41,318 nt of DNA, taken from the sequence record LN881738.1. The stretch is one strand, 5' to 3'. This document shows positions 3,863-33,860 of this stretch, one piece after another. This stretch comes from Clostridium phage slur17. The notes below the pieces were generated by a model that made no database searches, was not told where the DNA came from, and saw only the letters and a program-made list of their open reading frames with translations. How positions within the stretch are numbered: the first letter of the stretch is position 1; every line of letters begins with the position of its first letter. Made by a program: the position numbers and the translations under genes.

Positions 3863-6800
3863 TTATAAAGCTCCTTTTCTTTTTGCTAAGAACAATATTT
3901 CATCAAAAAGATTTTCTATATCTTGTTGTCTATTATTTACAAAGTTTTCTATATTAAGTTTAATACCTGCTTGATTTTCATTAGCTTCATCAGCCTTATT
4001 ATTACTCATTATAGCTGTTTCTTTTCCAGCTTTAAAATCTGTACTTGCAACTATATTAGCTTGTATTTTAGACGTTTCAAAATTAACTGTAGCTTTTAAT
4101 TTACCTGTAAGTTCAGATATATTTTTCTCTATTTTTTCTTTCAAGCCTGGCGTTTCTACATCTATTCCAACGCCGACCCCTTTTACAAGATTTCTACCAA
4201 TTAAATCTCGCATGATTATGGAAGGTGAATGCACTCCAAAGCCGTCTCTAAATCCATCTATAACATTACTAGCAAAATCAAGGACTTGGTCTTTTAACCA
4301 GCCACCCATGCCCGTTATACCTTCCCATAAGCCTCTTACAACATCTTTCCCGATACTCATAATTTTACTAGGCAAATCTTTCAAAGCATCCTTAACAGCA
4401 TTTGCCATATTTTTTCCAGCTTCTCCAGCTTGTTTGACTAAGTTAGTCCCCCAGCTTATGACATTTGAAATGATATTGTCTAGCCATTCTCTAAATTTTC
4501 CTGGAAGCTGGCTAACAGTATTGTATATATTGTTAAAAAAGTTTTTCGCTGTTTCTAAAGCTTTTTTAGATAAATTAACTTCCCACTCCATGACTTTTTG
4601 CATTATATTAGTTAATTTTTCCCATATTTTGCCCGGAAGTTCTGAAAAGAATTTCATTATATTTTCTAAGAATTTGCTTCCTGTTTCTAATGCTTTTTGA
4701 ATTAGATTAGAACCCCATTCCGAAACTTTTCCCATGATATCTGTAAACTTTTCCCATAATTTTCCCGGAAGCTCCGAAATTGGAATTAATACATTGTCAA
4801 CAAATTGATTAAAAATATCTGTTGCCAATTGCTTTAAATTTTCGCCCCAGCCACTTATTGTTTCTACTACTGTATTAAACCATTCCGAAATTCTTTCGGG
4901 TAGCTCTGTAAAAAACTGTGTTATATTTTCCCAAATTGCACCAAAAAACTCTGAAACAGAAACCTTGAAATTTTCGCCCCAAGTTTGAATATTTTGCAAT
5001 ATGATACTAAAAAATTCCGAAATTTTTTCCGGAAGGCTTACAAACCATTCGACAATGCTATTTATTATTTCTGGTAATGTTTCTGTTGCCCAGGCGTACA
5101 GATTAGCTCCTAAATCAACGAAAAAACCAGCAATAGACCCGATTACAAAACCAATATTATATGGAATTTGTTTAAACCATTCGACAATATTATTTATTAT
5201 AGCTGGCATTGTCTCATTAAAGAAACTTGATATTTTTTCTCCTATTTTCCCACATTCTTCTTTTATCTTGTCGCCAATACCCGCAAACCATTTTGGTACT
5301 GTGCTAGTAAAAAAGTCTAAACCACTTTTTAATCCGCTTCCAATTGCATCTCCAATTTTTGACCCAGTCTCTTTGAACCAATTGCTAAGACCGCCGAAAA
5401 TCTCTACAGCTTTATCTTTTATACTTGAAAAACCTTGCTGTGCCTTATCTCCAAACTCTGTAAAAAAGTCTCCAGCTCCTGCAAATCCTTCACTTATTTT
5501 ATTTCCAAGACCACCAAAAAATCCACCTATATTTTCAATTCCTTCTTTGAATTTATCTTTTACTTTAGAGAAGAAATCACCAATAGAATTTTTTGCACTA
5601 GCTAGCCACTCATTTATATTTTTGTCTGTATCTCTTAGCCATTTTTCTATTCCACCAAAAAAACCACCAATGCCATTGAACCCTTTTTTTATACTTTCAG
5701 ATAATTTACTAGCTGAATCCCCAACTTTAGGGACTGTTCCTGTTACGAGTTCATCACTGACAAGTTCTAAGCCTTCAACAGAAGTTTTAACATCATCTAT
5801 GCCATCAGCATATTCTTCTAGTTCTCCAGCGTCCAGTTTGGCAGAACCAGAATCCAAAGAGGAACTTTTAGCAGATGAGTCTACATCCCCTCCACTTGCG
5901 CTAGAAGTATTAGCTTTTTCTTTTAGTTTCTCATATTCTTCTAACTTTTTCTTCAATCTATCAAGCTCTTTTTCTTGTGCTGGTATAATCTCTTTTAAGT
6001 TAATAGCTTCCTTTACAGCTTCCTGGATAGATTGCTTTTTAGAGTTAACTCCATTTAACAAACTATCTGCTAAACTCTGCCCTGCATCCTGCCAATGCGG
6101 GTTATATTCACTTAAAAGTTTTATAATTTCTTCTGAATTTTTTTGTAAAAGTAGCCTTCTCGCTTCATTTTGAATATTTGTCTCTTCTAAAAGTTCACTA
6201 AAATATTTTTCAATTTCTTCTTTTTGACTAGCATTAGACTCTTTTATCAATTCAAGTTTTTTACTTTCTGCTTCTTTTTGATTGTCGTACTCTTCTTTGT
6301 ACTGCTCTTTTTTGTTACTAGCTTCTGTTTTTATATTTTCAATCTGTTCTTTTAATCTGTTTTTTTCTTGTTGCCTTTGTTCATCTAATAATTTCTTCTG
6401 TCTATCTGATTGTGCTTCTGATATTTCTTTTTGTATTTTTTCTCGTTCTTTTTGATTTTTAGCTGTTGCTAGTTTCCTGTCAAGGTCGCTTATTTTTTCA
6501 TTGTACGCTTTCTCTTCTTCTGCTTTTTGTTCTTCTTCAATTTGCTTGTCTATGGCGTCAATTTGTTCTTGTATAGCATTAGTTTTCTCATTTGTTTCTG
6601 TATCTAAATACTTTAATTTCTCATTGTATTCTTTTTCATAGACCTTTAATCTATCATTTGATGCCTTTTCCTCAACTTTTAGTCTTTCATCAAGCGCTTT
6701 TATTTGTATATCTTTTTGACTTTCATATTGATTTTTTAATGCTGTAGTTATAGCCTCGCAAATTTTTTCAAATTTACTCTTGTTGGTCTCAAGATTTTTT

Positions 6801-18419: not shown

Positions 18420-19742
18420 TTAGTCACCTCTTATAAATCTTTTTAAATATCTCTCTATTGTATATTCAAAAGCATCTAAACTATCTATATCACTTGACCC
18501 ATCATCAAGTCTTACATCCTCATTAGTTTCTTTACTATCCCAAACAGCACTACATAAAGCATTAACAAGAGTTTCACTATGCTTTGTATACTCAAACCTA
18601 CCTTGACTAATTAATAAGTCTGTAAGTCTTATCCTATCGTTAATAGCACTCTTCAAAGCATTTCTAACACTAACATTTAATTTTTCTTTTTCTACTGCAT
18701 TTTTAATGCCTCGTATTAATACCTGTTCAGCACTATCGCAATAAACATAATCAACTTTACCATACAGATTTATTACCCTTTTTATAAAGTTTATAAGTAA
18801 AGCATTCAACTCGTCTGGACTGGTATCTGCACTAGGTCTTTCACTTGCAAGAGCTATTACTTTTTTATAGTTATAAGTAATTCCAGTTGCGACAAAGGCA
18901 TGATATGATTTGTTACCCCCAAAATCCACTCCAATAATAACGTCCATAAGTGGGTCAACTGTTTCAGTCTTAAATTGCTCTTTATTATTAGCAAAGTATT
19001 CATATATAAGCCCCTCGGCTACACAGCGCTGACCTAGTATATCTCTCTTGTACCAAATACTGCCCTCGTCATATTGAGATATAATTGCCCGTTTTCTCTC
19101 GTCCGAGACTGTTATATTGTCGTGGATGGTAAAGTGCTGATAGTTATACCCACCTAGTAAAGTGCCTTCCCTATCTTTTTTCATATAAGCATCAATATAT
19201 TCTTTGTAAATTGACGAGTTGGGATTATCGGGGTTTAAATCCCAAAAAATTTTACGATTAGTTGATGCTATAATTCTATTAAAAGCCTCTTTGATAGTAT
19301 TGTCATGGTGCAGATTTATCTCTGTTGCTATCCACATGCCATATGAGTTACCCCTTATTTTCTTATAACTATCAGCCTTAGCCCCTCCGGCAAAAATAAC
19401 AATCTTTTGCTTATGCTTAGTTGAAATACCTTTTACATACAAACATTCATTGCCCTTAAATTTACCCCAATGACATTGCCCTCTGAAAATATATTCAAGT
19501 CCAAAACCATTAGCATCTCCAATGTTCAATTTTGCATTTGCACTTGTAGACCCTGTTGCTAGATGTATCTTATCTTTAGATGTCTTTATCTCATGCGCAA
19601 AGGCAAATACATTGTCAACCGTCTTACCCGCTCTTACAGCGCCTTCGGCTATATTGTATGTATTGATAGCGCACTTTTTAATATATTCTTTGTGCTTATC
19701 TCCAAATCGAAAAGGTATAGTTTTCTTCTTAGTTACTGCCAT
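18420..19742 (-). CDS. terL: Terminase large subunit (PBSX-type)
   Basis: Walker A-like EGAVRAGKT, a 440-aa length, and a C-terminal nuclease-like DSAE/D..D pattern. Overlaps terS. Confidence 0.9.
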   Translation of the reverse strand: MAVTKKKTIPFRFGDKHKEYIKKCAINTYNIAEGAVRAGKTVDNVFAFAHEIKTSKDKIHLATGSTSANAKLNIGDANGFGLEYIFRGQCHWGKFKGNECLYVKGISTKHKQKIVIFAGGAKADSYKKIRGNSYGMWIATEINLHHDNTIKEAFNRIIASTNRKIFWDLNPDNPNSSIYKEYIDAYMKKDREGTLLGGYNYQHFTIHDNITVSDERKRAIISQYDEGSIWYKRDILGQRCVAEGLIYEYFANNKEQFKTETVDPLMDVIIGVDFGGNKSYHAFVATGITYNYKKVIALASERPSADTSPDELNALLINFIKRVINLYGKVDYVYCDSAEQVLIRGIKNAVEKEKLNVSVRNALKSAINDRIRLTDLLISQGRFEYTKHSETLVNALCSAVWDSKETNEDVRLDDGSSDIDSLDAFEYTIERYLKRFIRGD

Positions 19743-20436
19743 AGATTTCTGCCTCTATCTCTTCTATATCCTCTATTTCTAAGTCATTACCAGTCAACTT
19801 ATTTGTTCTCGCTTTTATGTTTTCTATTCTGCTTTTTTGTTCTTCTGTTGCTAAATCCCAATTTTTATGAAGTAGTTCCTCATAGTCTTTTATCATTTTG
19901 GACAAAGCTTTAAATGCTGTCGCCTCTGCCTTCATAGCATTTGTAACTTTATCCCAAGAGTGTTGAATTTCATACTCTTTAATTTTATTACCATTTTTCT
20001 TAATGTCAGTTGTATGGTCTTTTTTATTTTTGACATGGGTAATCTTAAAAGAATCTAATATTTTCGCATACTGAACTACTATACTGTTCCAAAGAATGTC
20101 TAAAGAATTGCCACCATCCTTCTCGATATATTTAACAATCTCGTAAGTTCTAGCAGGCAAAAGCTTAGAGAAAAATCCATGAGTTCTAGCATTTTGATTA
20201 TTCGCTGGTGCGCCTCCTTCATGCCCTAAAGCATTTTGGTTGCCGGCTGGTGCGCCAACTTTCTTATTTATTCCAAGTCTATAATCCCATCTATCAATTT
20301 TTTTCCAACGACTAATATTGCAACTTTTTTCTTCTAACATTTTAGAGATATCAATTAATTTTATTCTCCCATTTTTCTCCTTGTAAATCTCAAACGCTTT
20401 TTCTCGATTGGAATTTTTTATTGAAATACAAATCAA
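19729..20436 (-). CDS. terS: Terminase small subunit (YjcR-like HTH type)
   Basis: NREKAFEIYKEKNGRIKLIDISKMLE..ISRWKKIDRWD together with the duplicated GAPAGNQNA / GAPANNQNA motif. The start codon is uncertain because the TTG at 20436 abuts the SD. Confidence 0.75.
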   Translation of the reverse strand: MICISIKNSNREKAFEIYKEKNGRIKLIDISKMLEEKSCNISRWKKIDRWDYRLGINKKVGAPAGNQNALGHEGGAPANNQNARTHGFFSKLLPARTYEIVKYIEKDGGNSLDILWNSIVVQYAKILDSFKITHVKNKKDHTTDIKKNGNKIKEYEIQHSWDKVTNAMKAEATAFKALSKMIKDYEELLHKNWDLATEEQKSRIENIKARTNKLTGNDLEIEDIEEIEAEIYGSN

Positions 20437-20445
20437 CTCCTTTCA

Positions 20446-20472
20446 ATAAAAAAAGACTAAGTACCTAGTCTT
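20446..20472 (-). terminator. Hairpin plus T-run between the serine recombinase gene and terS
   Basis: aagacta (20453-20459) pairs with tagtctt (20466-20472). On the minus strand it is followed by TTTTTTTATT. Confidence 0.5.
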
Positions 20473-21034
20473 CTTGTTTTCGCTTTGCTCTTTGTAATGT
20501 ACTCTTACTAATCCCTGTCATTCTCTCTACTTGCGTATAAGAATTAGTTTTTAATAACTCTAAAGCATGTTCCATTTGCATCTTAGTATATTTTTTAGGT
20601 CTACCTTCCCGGAAATTAGGATTTTGCTTTGCTATCTCCTTACCTGCAAAAGTTCGTTCTAAAATTAGATTCCTTTCCATTTCTGCAACTGCAAGCAAGG
20701 TTGTTATAAAAAACTTGCCAAGAGTAGTATTTTCTAAAAGCCCAACATTAAGCACATGAACAGAAATACCACTATCAAATAAATTTTGTATAAGATTAAT
20801 ACCTTCTGTTGCATTTCTTGCAAGTCTATCCAATTTAGTTACAACTAATTTATCACCATCACGCATTTGCTTAACCATTTCCTCAAAAATAGGTCTGTGC
20901 GTGGTTGACCCTGTATGTTGTTCCCTAAATATTTTAGCATCACTATAATGTCTTTTTATTTCCTGCTCCTGCTGTTCTAAACTATTATTATCAATTTGTA
21001 CTTTACTACTTACCCGACAATACCCAAATATCAT
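20465..21034 (-). CDS. Small serine recombinase (resolvase/invertase family)
   Basis: [13 protein letters not shown] catalytic N-terminus, [10 protein letters not shown], and a C-terminal HTH ([13 protein letters not shown]). ATG at 21034 follows AAGGGG. Confidence 0.85.
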
Positions 21035-21498
21035 AAAAATACACCCCTTACTTTTGACCATTAGTTATGACTACCTTCTATATGTTCATTTTACTACATA
21101 ATCAAATCGTAGTCAATACCGTACAGTTATGAATACGAGTGAATTTTTTTAAATGAATCAAAAGTACTTATAAGTATTGTCATTACTCTTGCAAAAGGGC
21201 GTAATTGAATTGTTTGCCTGTGAATTTTGTAGTTTTTATTGCATCAAACTCATTCTCTATTTTTCCATGTCCTTTAAGTTTTGTCCGTATGTCCTTAAGC
21301 TTCGTCATGGCCATTTTAATGTTAAATAGCTTCTATCCCAGTATTTATAATGGCTAACGCCTATTTTAACGAATATGGGGTTTTCTTAGAGAATCAGACA
21401 TTCACTTTTTACTTTTCCTACTTTATATATAGCGAAAAAAATACATTGAATATATAAGCCTTTATTTTTCCCACATTCAAAAAGACAAAATAAAAAAA

Positions 21499-22107
21499 TC
21501 ACCCTATTAGGTCATTTAAAAACATGCTATATTCTTGATATTGTTCTTCATTAAGACCTAGATATACCTTAGTTTCTTCTATACTAGAATGTCCAAGCAT
21601 TTCCTTAACTCTTATAATATCAAATCCACTTTCTTCGTATATGGTGTAAGCGTATGTTTTACGCATGCTATGCGCTGTTATATGCTTAAGTCCAAAGTAT
21701 CTACCTGCTTCTTTCAGTATCACTGTTACTCTCTCAACGCCTATATGCGGAGTAACAGATTTTTGCCTGGATGGGAACATATATTCATAGTCCTTTTTAT
21801 CTCGTATGTAGCTTTTGAGTACTCTTTCTAAATTAGGAACTATTGGAGCTTTTCTAGGCTTTTTATTTTTCTTTCTTATGTTCTTAGTCTTTTCTTTTTT
21901 ACTCTCCATTATTAAGAAATAACCTTCGTCTATTGCATTTCTAACGTCCCTTACCTGTAGTTTAACTAAATCCCCTGCCCTGTAGCCCGTAGCCACCCCT
22001 AAGACAAATAAAACATAATTTCTAACACTCTTTTCTTTTAAGTATTCTTGTATATTTAAGACCATACGTTTGTCTTTGACTGGGTTAGCTGGTTTCTTAC
22101 TACCCAC
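21499..22107 (-). CDS. Small tyrosine recombinase (Xer-like, no arm-binding domain)
   Basis: HSMRKTYAYTIYEESGFDIIRVKEMLGHSSIEETKVYL carries the R..H..Y-type C-terminal catalytic pattern. Only 202 aa. Confidence 0.8.
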   Translation of the reverse strand: MGSKKPANPVKDKRMVLNIQEYLKEKSVRNYVLFVLGVATGYRAGDLVKLQVRDVRNAIDEGYFLIMESKKEKTKNIRKKNKKPRKAPIVPNLERVLKSYIRDKKDYEYMFPSRQKSVTPHIGVERVTVILKEAGRYFGLKHITAHSMRKTYAYTIYEESGFDIIRVKEMLGHSSIEETKVYLGLNEEQYQEYSMFLNDLIG

Positions 22108-22284
22108 TTCTATTCACCTTCTCAACCCCCTTAAAATATTAATTTGCATTATAAAAAGCCCAACATTCCTGCCAGGCTTCAAATCTATATCTATTTAATT
22201 TTAAACTTCTTGATATTAATATTATACACTATATAAACGTAAAAGAGTGTTCTAACTTTGTCTTAAAAACCGTCTTTTTTTGTT

Positions 22285-22857
22285 CTATAAAAGACTTCCA
22301 CTTTCAAAAAGCATTTCGGCAAGTTCTTTCAATGCTTCCTTGTGTTTATAATGAACATTACTGCGACTACATTTAATCTTTGAGGCAATTTCTTCATTAG
22401 AAAGTTTACTTGCGCCATCATAAAAATACATAAATTTTATAATTTGTTGCTTCTCTTCTGTAAGTTCACTTATGTAAATATCCATTAGTCTCAATCTATA
22501 TTCTATAAAATCAATTTCACTTTCTTTAAATGATATTTTATCCTCATTATTCATAATCATTTCATCTATGCCCTTCGGGCTAGAATGTATTTTAAACCCT
22601 AGTTCATTGAAATTTATCTCTCTATAAAATTCTTTATCTTTTAAAAAATCTATCTCTTTTCTTAGAATATCTACTCTTCTTTTCTTATTTCCAAGTTCAA
22701 TTAAATATTCTTTGGTTTCTTCAACTAAGCAAGAACTTACGTTTTTTTCTTTGTCTTTTTTATACTTTCTTTCGCATGATTTACAGCAAAATCCGTTTTT
22801 TGACTCTGTAAAAAATGACTTACCGCACCATGAACAAATCCTTTTCTTTTTTGCCAT
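22285..22857 (-). CDS. Putative late-gene transcriptional activator (N-terminal zinc ribbon plus sigma-70 region-4-like HTH)
   Basis: CSWCGKSF...CCKSCERKY at the N-terminus. The C-terminal LSNEEIASKIKCSRSNVHYKHKEALKELAEML resembles ArpU/RinA/sigma r4. Confidence 0.55.
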   Translation of the reverse strand: MAKKKRICSWCGKSFFTESKNGFCCKSCERKYKKDKEKNVSSCLVEETKEYLIELGNKKRRVDILRKEIDFLKDKEFYREINFNELGFKIHSSPKGIDEMIMNNEDKISFKESEIDFIEYRLRLMDIYISELTEEKQQIIKFMYFYDGASKLSNEEIASKIKCSRSNVHYKHKEALKELAEMLFESGSLL

Positions 22858-27505: not shown

Positions 27506-27694
27506 GAGCACATGTACGATTTTTTGTCGCAATTAAACATTTATACTACAATAATAGTACCTTTTATCAAATTTTGCTAGTGGAAAATAATTCCAATTCA
27601 AAATACATTGAATTTTCTTACATTAGGAAAGTTCAGGGTCAATTTTTTTAACCTTGCGATTTTCCATTTGGTATAAGTTTTATATTTTCACATC

Positions 27695-27760
27695 AAAAAG
27701 TCACGCAAGTAGGAATATATATATATATATATATATTAAATCCTACTTGCGTGACTTTTT
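27695..27760. terminator. Palindrome A: 15-bp stem around an (AT)n loop with A/T-run flanks (probable bidirectional terminator)
   Basis: gtcacgcaagtagga (27700-27714) pairs with tcctacttgcgtgac (27741-27755). The loop is (AT)11 followed by taaa. Confidence 0.6.
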
Positions 27761-27764
27761 GTTC

Positions 27765-27908: not shown

Positions 27909-27957
27909 TTAAATATTGTATGCTAATTATGTTTATTTTAATTGATGACTCATTATC

Positions 27958-28015
27958 AAAAAGTCAGTCGACCTGGAATATATATATATATATATTCCAG
28001 GTCGACTGACTTTTT
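27958..28015. terminator. Palindrome B: 16-bp stem around a (TA)8 loop. Same flanks as palindrome A but a different stem sequence
   Basis: gtcagtcgacctggaa pairs with ttccaggtcgactgac in a perfect palindrome. Left flank atcaaaaagtca and right flank tgactttttgtt.ttagatgcaaatttcta are shared with A. Confidence 0.6.
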
Positions 28016-28077
28016 GTTTTTAGATGCAAATTTCTAATTGTTCTTTTGATTCTGTTTCTTTTTGATTAAATACAATT

Positions 28078-32369: not shown

Positions 32370-32585
32370 TATAATATAAAAATATTACTGTAATATTATA
32401 AAAATATTATTTTAGTATTGTATATACAATATTTTAGTATTTTTAATATAATATATTGGTATTGTAAAAGCAATATGTAAATATTGTATTTATATTATTT
32501 GAATATTGTAATTAACAATATTAATATATTGTTGCAATATTATAAAAACAATACTACAATATTATTATAATATTATAAATATAAT
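32370..32585. repeat. Centromere-like cluster of ATATTG/CAATAT palindromes upstream of parA
   Basis: Examples: aatattacTgtaatatt, agtattgtataTacaatatt, aatattgtaattaacaatatt, atattgttgcaatat. Confidence 0.55.
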
Positions 32586-32600
32586 AATGAGGTGGAGAAA

Positions 32601-33744: not shown

Positions 33745-33860
33745 TAATATTATATTTATATTGTTTAGATATTACTTAAATATTGTATATATAATATTTA
33801 AGTAATATTTTAATATTATTATTACAATATATTAATATTGTTTAAATAATATGTTTTAAC
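33745..33860. repeat. Second centromere-like palindrome cluster downstream of the par genes
   Basis: 40-bp palindrome atattacttaaatattgtatatataatatttaagtaatat at about 33770-33809, plus acaatatattaatattgt. Confidence 0.5.

Follow-up and report, generated by a model that had tools for sequence, protein, structure and literature searches.

Predicted target regions of two small recombinases around a decayed gene in a plasmid prophage of the phiCD38-2 type

Introduction

The simple core sites loxP and FRT of tyrosine recombinases are 34 bp long. TnpI of Tn4430, a tyrosine recombinase of 284 residues, acts at IRS, a site that adjoins its gene and combines a core with extra motifs for the same protein, these accessory motifs being direct repeats. 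The beta recombinase of pSM19035 and its site six form the same kind of system as Sin and resH of S. aureus plasmids. Sin res is 86 bp long and consists of site I, an HU/IHF site, and direct-repeat site II; Sin resolves plasmid dimers, acting on directly repeated sites (PMC2428073). Here we compare with these systems two small recombinase genes, one of the serine and one of the tyrosine family, and the spacer between them in Clostridium phage slur17 (record LN881738.1); the whole stretch analyzed, 41,318 nucleotides, is called the window. We propose, at a probability of about 0.6, that the spacer consists of two recombinase target regions around a dead gene, both of them serving multimer resolution of a circular plasmid prophage.

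The window is closest to the C. difficile siphophages of the genus Leicestervirus (phiCD38-2/CDSH1 type): it is 100% identical to CDSH1, 98.5% to phiCD38-2 and AR1075-1, and 87% to Hain-Saunders-2022a, and the region is also present in 3 C. difficile plasmid records of 41-42 kb. The phiCD38-2 prophage is circular and extrachromosomal (PMC6127314, PMC8026635); PMC8026635 lists headful packaging, ParA/ParB, "one Xer-like tyrosine recombinase", and "a small serine recombinase" for the phage, and says that such small recombinases are "believed" to resolve dimers. Its record annotates ParA, and no integrase other than the small tyrosine recombinase. In the literature searched, with Sekulovic 2011 and 2015 outside its scope, we found no description of the sites of these two recombinases.

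The serine recombinase and its predicted res site

Judged by its domains, the serine recombinase is a member of the small serine recombinases, which have a catalytic domain with a nucleophilic serine and a helix-turn-helix (HTH). It matches Pfam Resolvase (PF00239, 1.7e-31) together with HTH_7/HTH_49; PHROG 125, named DNA invertase (9e-58); and, among PDB sequences, Gin (2e-22), Tn3/gamma-delta resolvase (1e-17), and Sin (7e-15). Residues R7, V8, and S9 are invariant in the family alignment. A longer open reading frame (ORF) reaches 21061, but the 189-residue form is favored because alignments with homologs begin at residue 1-3 of it; the Shine-Dalgarno sequence AAGGGGTG at 21042-21049 precedes this form.

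The region directly upstream of the gene has the layout of a Sin/beta-type res site (Table 1). Site I overlaps the -35 box of a promoter that the promoter scan finds independently (10/12 matches), site II is placed downstream of the -10 box and ahead of the ribosome-binding site, and the interval between the two sites is 34 bp. In a position-weight search, with weights derived from the same sites, site I is unique in the 41-kb genome, scoring 29.7 against 12.2 for the runner-up; the half-sites of site II score 14.3 and 17.3, both within the top five of the window. Parts of this layout had been glimpsed in an earlier reading of the window (hereafter the sequence-only reading), which described GTAGTCA half-sites in inverted orientation. 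These exist, at 21063-21074 (as the reverse complement) and at 21109-21116, but they had been paired wrongly, the former being the left repeat of site II and the latter the right half of site I. The further pattern TTACTAC-N11-GTAGTCAA is likewise real, but its TTACTAC (21091-21097) is the -10 region of the serine recombinase promoter rather than a half-site. The direct repeat AGTTATGA(C/A)TAC, also present in the spacer, and the fourth half-site, 21050-21061, had gone unmentioned.

The same upstream architecture, read in gene orientation, occurs in divergent syntenic phages whose serine recombinases are 60-67% identical. We also fetched 80 further homologs (46-68% identity) from the genomes of Clostridia, Bacilli, and a few other bacteria. 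In the homologs a 12-bp half-site is followed by 4 bp, an inverted half-site supplying a TTGACA -35 box, 17 bp, and the -10 box, and then by about 10 bp, two direct half-sites at a 13-bp offset, and the ribosome-binding site. Site I serves as an anchor in 87 of the 99 distinct upstream regions, and the ungapped consensus of these 87 is TgTCATAACT-TAAc-AGTATTGACA ... GTAaaAT ... GgtGTCAaAACTtAtagTCAAAA. The 14-bp internal offset of site I is kept in 61/63 loci, and the -35 (inside site I) and -10 boxes are both conserved across the family. Family-wide evidence for site II consists of the anchored ungapped consensus only; the site II tally, which scored N positions as matches, was left unused.

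An inverted 12-bp pair as site I and a direct-repeat site II, two of the features that mark the Sin/beta type (PMC2428073), are both found here, and we regard the prediction of a Sin/beta-type res site, and with it the serine part of our model, as solid. A single site I combined with a direct-repeat site II makes a predicted resolvase far more likely than the enzyme that database records name ("DNA invertase" or "pinR"). By analogy with other resolvases, the recombinase would also be expected to repress its own gene, since its sites lie around the promoter. We wish to stress the difference between system and protein: the system probably works like Sin, and by sequence comparison the protein appears to be neither a Sin ortholog nor a close Sin relative.

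The tyrosine recombinase and the conserved element after its gene

Residues R43, K70/K71, H146, R149, H173, and Y182 of the 202-residue tyrosine recombinase are invariant and make up the full catalytic set. An AlphaFold model of the protein (predicted local distance difference test score 84) agrees in fold with the catalytic part of XerA, XerH, Cre, IntI, and others, and contains nothing equivalent to the N-terminal core-binding domains of these structural matches. The family is large and tight, with more than 560 proteins of about 200 residues and 57-68% identity across the clostridial genera; phages of Bacillus and Streptococcus carry more distant relatives. In sequence comparisons with NCBIfam and the PDB, Xer-type proteins come out best. 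Two assignments were tried and rejected: XerC/XerD membership, on account of the length of 202 residues, the single domain, and scores far under the NCBIfam cut-offs (60 bits against 335 for XerC, 59 against 330 for XerD); and a FimB/FimE-type invertase, which scores 25 bits against a cut-off of 221 and sits badly with the single orientation of the element described below in 73 loci. Upstream of the gene, on the minus strand at 22148-22175, is a promoter-like sequence, CTGGCA-16-TATAAT (10/12 matches).

In each family member examined, about 130 bp after the stop codon are conserved. In the window this element contains two dyad units, beginning 20 bp past the stop codon. The arms of unit 2 are bipartite (GAATGT-N3-ATT) and 12-13 bp long, around an asymmetric center of 7-9 bp. 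The motif TGAATGT-N18-24-AYATTC occurs twice in the window, both times in the element (0.07 expected), and had escaped the sequence-only reading.

We aligned the element from 73 loci, representing 49 distinct sequences. Specifically, i) the shared parts are a T-run, unit 1 (GAATGT-N19-AcATTn), an A-run, the TATATA box, a purine tract, and unit 2 (GAATGTnTGATTCtCTAaGAAAATnnnACATTC), with not a single gap within unit 1 or unit 2; ii) the unit 2 dyad reaches complementarities of 0.79-1.0 in its outer 6 bp and of 0.73-1.0 over positions 10-12 (ATT/AAT); iii) the outer positions of unit 1 are conserved and complementary, although the outermost G-C pair is often lost; iv) the linker measures 44-46 bp in 62/73 loci and 43 or 49-51 bp in the rest; and v) all 73 loci carry the element in one orientation, and in most of them it lies 17-23 bp from the recombinase stop codon. 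A strict form of the unit 2 motif finds 31 matches in all 2.9 million IMG/VR contigs, and 31/31 lie about 100 nucleotides downstream of a recombinase homolog on the same strand. The gene next downstream of the element may be a serine recombinase of the window's type, another serine recombinase of 203 residues, an HNH endonuclease, or a small ORF; since this neighbor varies while the element stays, the element belongs with the tyrosine recombinase gene. No second dyad unit, nor a second res, was found elsewhere in the genome.

With its 33 bp, inverted arms, and asymmetric center, unit 2 resembles the simple core sites (lox/FRT/dif) in size and symmetry. Position, linkage, and format together predict that this previously undescribed double dyad element is most likely the recombinase's own target, and from them we infer the tyrosine part of our model. 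An RNA element was considered and rejected: RNAalifold finds zero pairs on the 73 sequences, an Rfam search of the spacer returns zero matches even at E <= 5, and the wobble-like hexamer changes give RNA no support. A third dyad, ACGAAC-N~22-GTTCG(T/G), follows unit 2 at some 15-70 nucleotides in roughly half of the family loci (among them L038 and L161); others have AATAGGC-type motifs in its place. The stretch downstream of unit 2 that is specific to Leicestervirus holds an imperfect inverted repeat, CGTTAAAATAG...CTATTTAAC.

The spacer and its decayed middle

All local genes are on the minus strand, in the order sigma-like regulator, tyrosine recombinase, spacer, serine recombinase, terS, terL. 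The sequence-only reading had placed the two recombinase genes correctly, between a late activator, here the sigma-like regulator, and terS. With the start of the 189-residue serine ORF the spacer is 464 bp long, and in an alignment with three relatives it is zoned, its ends conserved and its middle variable. From 21035 to about 21200, on the side of the serine recombinase, the sequence is conserved; in the ORF part, about 21200-21310, it varies most and contains indels; and the side toward the tyrosine recombinase (21315-21498) is near-invariant, exceeding the genes in conservation, even in comparison with Hain-Saunders-2022a, which is 87% identical overall.

The 43-codon ORF in the middle had been taken for a gene fragment, and the comparison agrees: its counterpart in Hain-Saunders-2022a is broken by stops and a frameshift, with residual amino acid similarity in two frames. 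The ORF matches PHROG 27502, a family of unknown function, and a Pfam search gave no match; by these signs it is the remnant of a decaying gene. Two other early observations on the spacer did not hold up as signals. The near-palindrome AGTACTTATAAGTATT exists and was rejected as a site, its frequency being at chance level: the window holds 53 comparable 16-mers, the spacer has 1 against 0.49 +/- 0.72 in shuffles, and one arm is mutated in Hain-Saunders-2022a. Nor is the spacer locally GC-richer, as had been claimed; its GC content is 29.1%, below the 30.8% of the window and the 33-34.5% of the two flanking genes, and 66% of all 437-bp segments equal or exceed it, so that we rejected a GC-rich island.

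Distribution, synteny, and origin

Distant phages (L008/L009, L012, L013, and L014) repeat the arrangement of tyrosine recombinase, a spacer of 425-465 bp, serine recombinase, and terS. The spacer measures 425-445 bp in L008, L012, L013, and L014, and the first three of these have CTAATATATACACTTAAAAAAG in common; in five more genomic loci (L048, L051, L054, L062, and L063) the genes stand in this order as well, with a gap of comparable length. Another C. difficile phage, L036, has a tyrosine recombinase 92% identical to that of the window and the same element, but before terS it carries a different serine recombinase of 203 residues (4133-4744), which tblastn with the serine protein of the window does not detect at 1e-4; this points to cassette exchange there. 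Homology between the window and L036 stops near 21325, about 45 bp beyond unit 2, and on that ground site-specific exchange at unit 2 was rejected as the source of the breakpoint. Near most of the 80 genomic serine recombinase homologs, both this tyrosine recombinase and this terS are absent. Common to the phage group, the tyrosine module seems to be the ancestral of the two. Because the homologs occur in many contexts, and because the slot in L036 holds another serine recombinase, res and the serine recombinase are probably an interchangeable cassette added between the element and terS, with the dead ORF probably a relic.

In phiCD506 (Sherbrookevirus), which has ParA, the small tyrosine recombinase is the sole recombinase and no integrase is annotated; it is also the sole recombinase of the circular 35-kb element CWou-2020a (C. 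botulinum), which has ParM. Three plasmid-prophage lineages (phiCD38-2, phiCD506, and CWou-2020a) thus have partition genes and lack an integrase, which fits multimer resolution. A different case is L228 in the chromosome of Clostridium sp. BJN0001, an integrated prophage with a 385-residue integrase at its end, in which the small gene lies between the sigma-like and HNH/terL genes. We therefore rejected the small tyrosine recombinase as a phage integrase, since L228 has an integrase of its own, the small gene is internal there, and the element stands intact beside packaging genes. L228 also encodes ParA and ParB beside its canonical integrase and the small tyrosine recombinase, and this prophage may live in both states, integrated and plasmid.

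Proposed function and alternatives

What the sequences show is the anatomy of the two modules, their conservation, their one copy per genome, and their tie to the genes; the binding, strand exchange, repression, and biological role we infer as follows. A dimer of the serine recombinase would bind the 28-bp site I and exchange strands at its center. Another would occupy the direct repeats of site II and, probably helped by a host HU-like protein that bends the 34-bp interval, would build a regulatory synapse confining the reaction to sites in direct repeat within a single supercoiled circle. Such binding would also repress the serine recombinase gene, since site I covers the -35 box and site II separates the -10 box from the ribosome-binding site. 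The tyrosine recombinase would act on 21371-21478, using unit 2 as a core-like site and unit 1 as a second dyad 44 bp off. Both modules would turn plasmid-prophage multimers into monomers and so let the ParA system segregate the copies. Res- or dif-like multimer-resolution sites had already been suggested for the spacer by the sequence-only reading, and the Sin-type res in 87/99 homologs, the double dyad in 73 loci, and the extrachromosomal family all support it, even though the tyrosine element itself had not been noticed.

Several points weigh against this proposal: the serine recombinase is nearer in sequence to the invertase Gin than to Sin; two adjacent resolution systems would be redundant; the linkage of element and gene could reflect shared descent within one family; distant tyrosine recombinase homologs (32-47% identity) with the same gene order lack GAATGT dyads, and no shared dyads were found downstream of those distant homologs that accompany serine recombinases in other phages; the tyrosine module is present in an integrated chromosomal prophage, L228, that has its own large integrase, so that its role is not limited to plasmid maintenance; and the element, with the sigma-like regulator on one side and the packaging genes on the other, occupies the place in which one would look for a late-operon control region. 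The last two points lead to an alternative that we consider unlikely but worth weighing with care, namely that 21371-21498 is a control region of the packaging or late operon, with sites for the sigma-like regulator, terminase, or another dimeric protein, and that the recombinase acts elsewhere or otherwise. It would suit the constant position between the regulator and HNH, terS, and terL, the conserved TATATA box and purine-rich tract, and the occurrence in an integrated prophage, where plasmid multimer resolution is unneeded; yet the promoter scan finds zero sigma-A-type promoters inside the element, the distance and identity of the next gene vary widely while the recombinase stop codon stays close by, the two dyads, at 31 and 33 bp and with fixed internal spacing, match tyrosine recombinase core sites in length, and in the window the dead ORF, the res site, and another gene intervene before terS.

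We think it improbable that the sites mainly circularize terminally redundant headful DNA after injection, as P1 Cre/loxP does near pac, with multimer resolution secondary. Both sites do lie less than about 1 kb from terS, where pac sites usually sit; if packaging runs from pac through terS/terL as in SPP1, however, the sites would fall outside the terminal redundancy of the first headfuls, and relatives with HNH and a P27-type terS would be of the cos type, for which recombinational circularization is unneeded. The listing of phiCD38-2 as a headful packager (PMC8026635) speaks for circularization. An invertase flipping a phage segment, or a spacer that is itself invertible or excisable (the other suggestion of the sequence-only reading, which we abandon), would be favored by Gin as best solved-structure sequence match, by the name of PHROG 125, and by the RefSeq labels "DNA invertase" and "pinR". 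It has very little probability in our view: there is one crossover-type site in the 41-kb genome, no inverted repeats relating the spacer to any other place were found, all related genomes have the identical orientation, as do all 73 loci of the element, and the direct-repeat site II is a regulatory architecture of the resolvase type. That the spacer is a mere decayed gene devoid of functional sites is scarcely credible, for although its middle, 21183-21314, is indeed a decaying ORF, the flanking parts are conserved beyond coding sequences and their motifs recur in dozens of distantly related loci.

A further possibility touches the host. Lysogeny by phiCD38-2 moves the host cwpV switch from about 5% to 95% ON (PMC6127314), and a recV mutant lysogen stays locked for cwpV (PMC4737114, PMC5386303), which indicates that the phage enzymes do not flip the switch themselves; overexpression of the phage regulator PtrX left cwpV expression unchanged (bioRxiv 10.1101/2023.08.24.554564). 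The small tyrosine recombinase might bias the RecV-dependent switch to ON, for example through mixed complexes with RecV or by occupying RecV sites, but we hold this for a long shot.

Features of the locus and of the rest of the window

The features discussed are collected in Table 1. Elsewhere in the window, AT-rich inverted repeat arrays (73-83 nucleotides, 74-77% complementary) at 32373-32586 and 33748-33842 flank the ParA operon and are possible centromere-like partition sites. Two long (TA)n-centered palindromes, 195 bp apart, at 27694-27761 (arms of 34+34 nucleotides at 91%) and 27957-28016 (30+30 at 100%; CAAAAAGTCAGTCGACCTGGAATATATATA and its complement), lie in the intergenic region equivalent to phiCD38-2 gp37/gp38, just ahead of the repressor gene, and they are candidates for a replication origin or operator. 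On the minus strand, 15053-15112 matches the Rfam GP20-b RNA (RF03003) with 55 bits against a gathering score of 36.2 (E = 1.3e-9).

Table 1. Coordinates of the recombinase locus in the window
Feature	Position	Strand	Remarks
Sigma-like regulator	22285-22857	-	neighbor of the tyrosine recombinase gene
Tyrosine recombinase, 202 residues, catalytic domain only	21499-22107	-	Pfam Phage_integrase 3.8e-21, residues 19-187
Conserved element	21371-21498	-	directly after the tyrosine recombinase gene; two dyad units
Unit 1, 31-bp dyad GAATGT-N19-ATATTC	21448-21478	-	predicted accessory or second binding site
Linker between units, 44 bp: A-run, TATATA, purine-rich tract	21404-21447	-	consensus AAAAT-N4-TATATATAnAAGTAGnAAAAA
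Unit 2, 33-bp dyad GAATGTCTGATTC-TCTAAGA-AAACCCCATATTC	21371-21403	-	predicted core recombination site
Leicestervirus-specific conserved stretch downstream of unit 2	21315-21370	-	near-invariant between phages 87% identical
43-codon ORF without ribosome-binding site	21183-21314	-	most variable stretch of the spacer
Near-palindrome AGTACTTATAAGTATT	21163-21178	.	chance-level frequency; one arm mutated in Hain-Saunders-2022a
Whole predicted res site, 87 bp, Sin/beta type	21050-21136	-	site I, promoter, and site II, directly upstream of the gene
Site I, 28-bp inverted repeat 12+4+12	21109-21136	-	predicted crossover site; GTATTCATAACT-GTAC-GGTATTGACTAC
Promoter of the serine recombinase gene, sigma-A type	21088-21116	-	-35 TTGACT 21111-21116, 17 nucleotides, -10 TAAAAT 21088-21093
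Site II, two direct 12-bp half-sites	21050-21074	-	ATGGTCAAAAGT (21050-21061), GTAGTCATAACT (21063-21074), offset 13 bp
Serine recombinase, 189 residues, N-terminal catalytic domain and C-terminal HTH	20465-21034	-	predicted resolvase
terS	19729-20436	-	neighbor of the serine recombinase gene

Significance

Two bare annotations, "integrase" and "DNA invertase", become defined, testable cis sites in a medically relevant plasmid prophage; the RefSeq "invertase" label is probably wrong, and the Sin-type res layout is valid for a large group of Firmicutes serine recombinases. On the tyrosine side there emerges a widespread module of a 200-residue recombinase lacking a DNA-clamping domain and a conserved predicted target of about 110 bp. 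If active, it would be among the smallest self-contained tyrosine recombination systems, with a bearing on how DNA is held and possibly on tool development. In epidemic C. difficile, toxin production is increased and phase variation changed by prophages of the phiCD38-2 type, and the sites could serve to destabilize, cure, or engineer these prophages.

Comparison with known systems

Sin/resH shares with the serine part of the locus a small serine recombinase with a C-terminal HTH, a compact res adjoining the gene (about 86 bp, 87 bp in the window), an inverted site I, a direct-repeat site II, an interval of a length that would suit a bending protein, and the presumed role in resolving plasmid dimers (PMC2428073). 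It differs in that the half-site of the window is GTAGTCAWAACT, and that of most relatives GTGTCAWAACT; that protein similarity is modest (7e-15); that the host element here is a phage; and that sites I and II bracket the gene's own promoter. Gin/Hin invertases are alike in size and domain order, and Gin is the best solved-structure sequence match, but the window has no second crossover site (29.7 against 12.2) and does have the direct-repeat site II.

Cre/loxP of P1 also combines a tyrosine recombinase gene with an adjacent dyad of about 33-34 bp with an asymmetric center in a phage living as a plasmid, and the Cre catalytic domain is among the structural matches; Cre, however, has 343 residues in two DNA-clamping domains, whereas the protein of the window has 202 residues in a catalytic domain only, and its predicted target has two dyad units 44 bp apart. 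TnpI/IRS offers the parallel of a core with a further binding unit, except that the second unit of the window is itself a dyad and the protein is smaller. XerC/XerD, to which the AR1075-1 annotation refers with dif, share the catalytic fold and residues; the enzyme of the window lacks the N-terminal core-binding domain and is a single phage protein with its own predicted site rather than a chromosomal pair at dif. FimB/FimE and C. difficile RecV are likewise about 200 residues long and encoded directly upstream of a short element with inverted hexamers, but the hexamers of the window are 44 to about 100 bp apart, under the known switches (the flg switch is 154 bp, PMC5386303). Set beside these systems, the serine part is ordinary and, by now, well defined, and the tyrosine part is a new variant.

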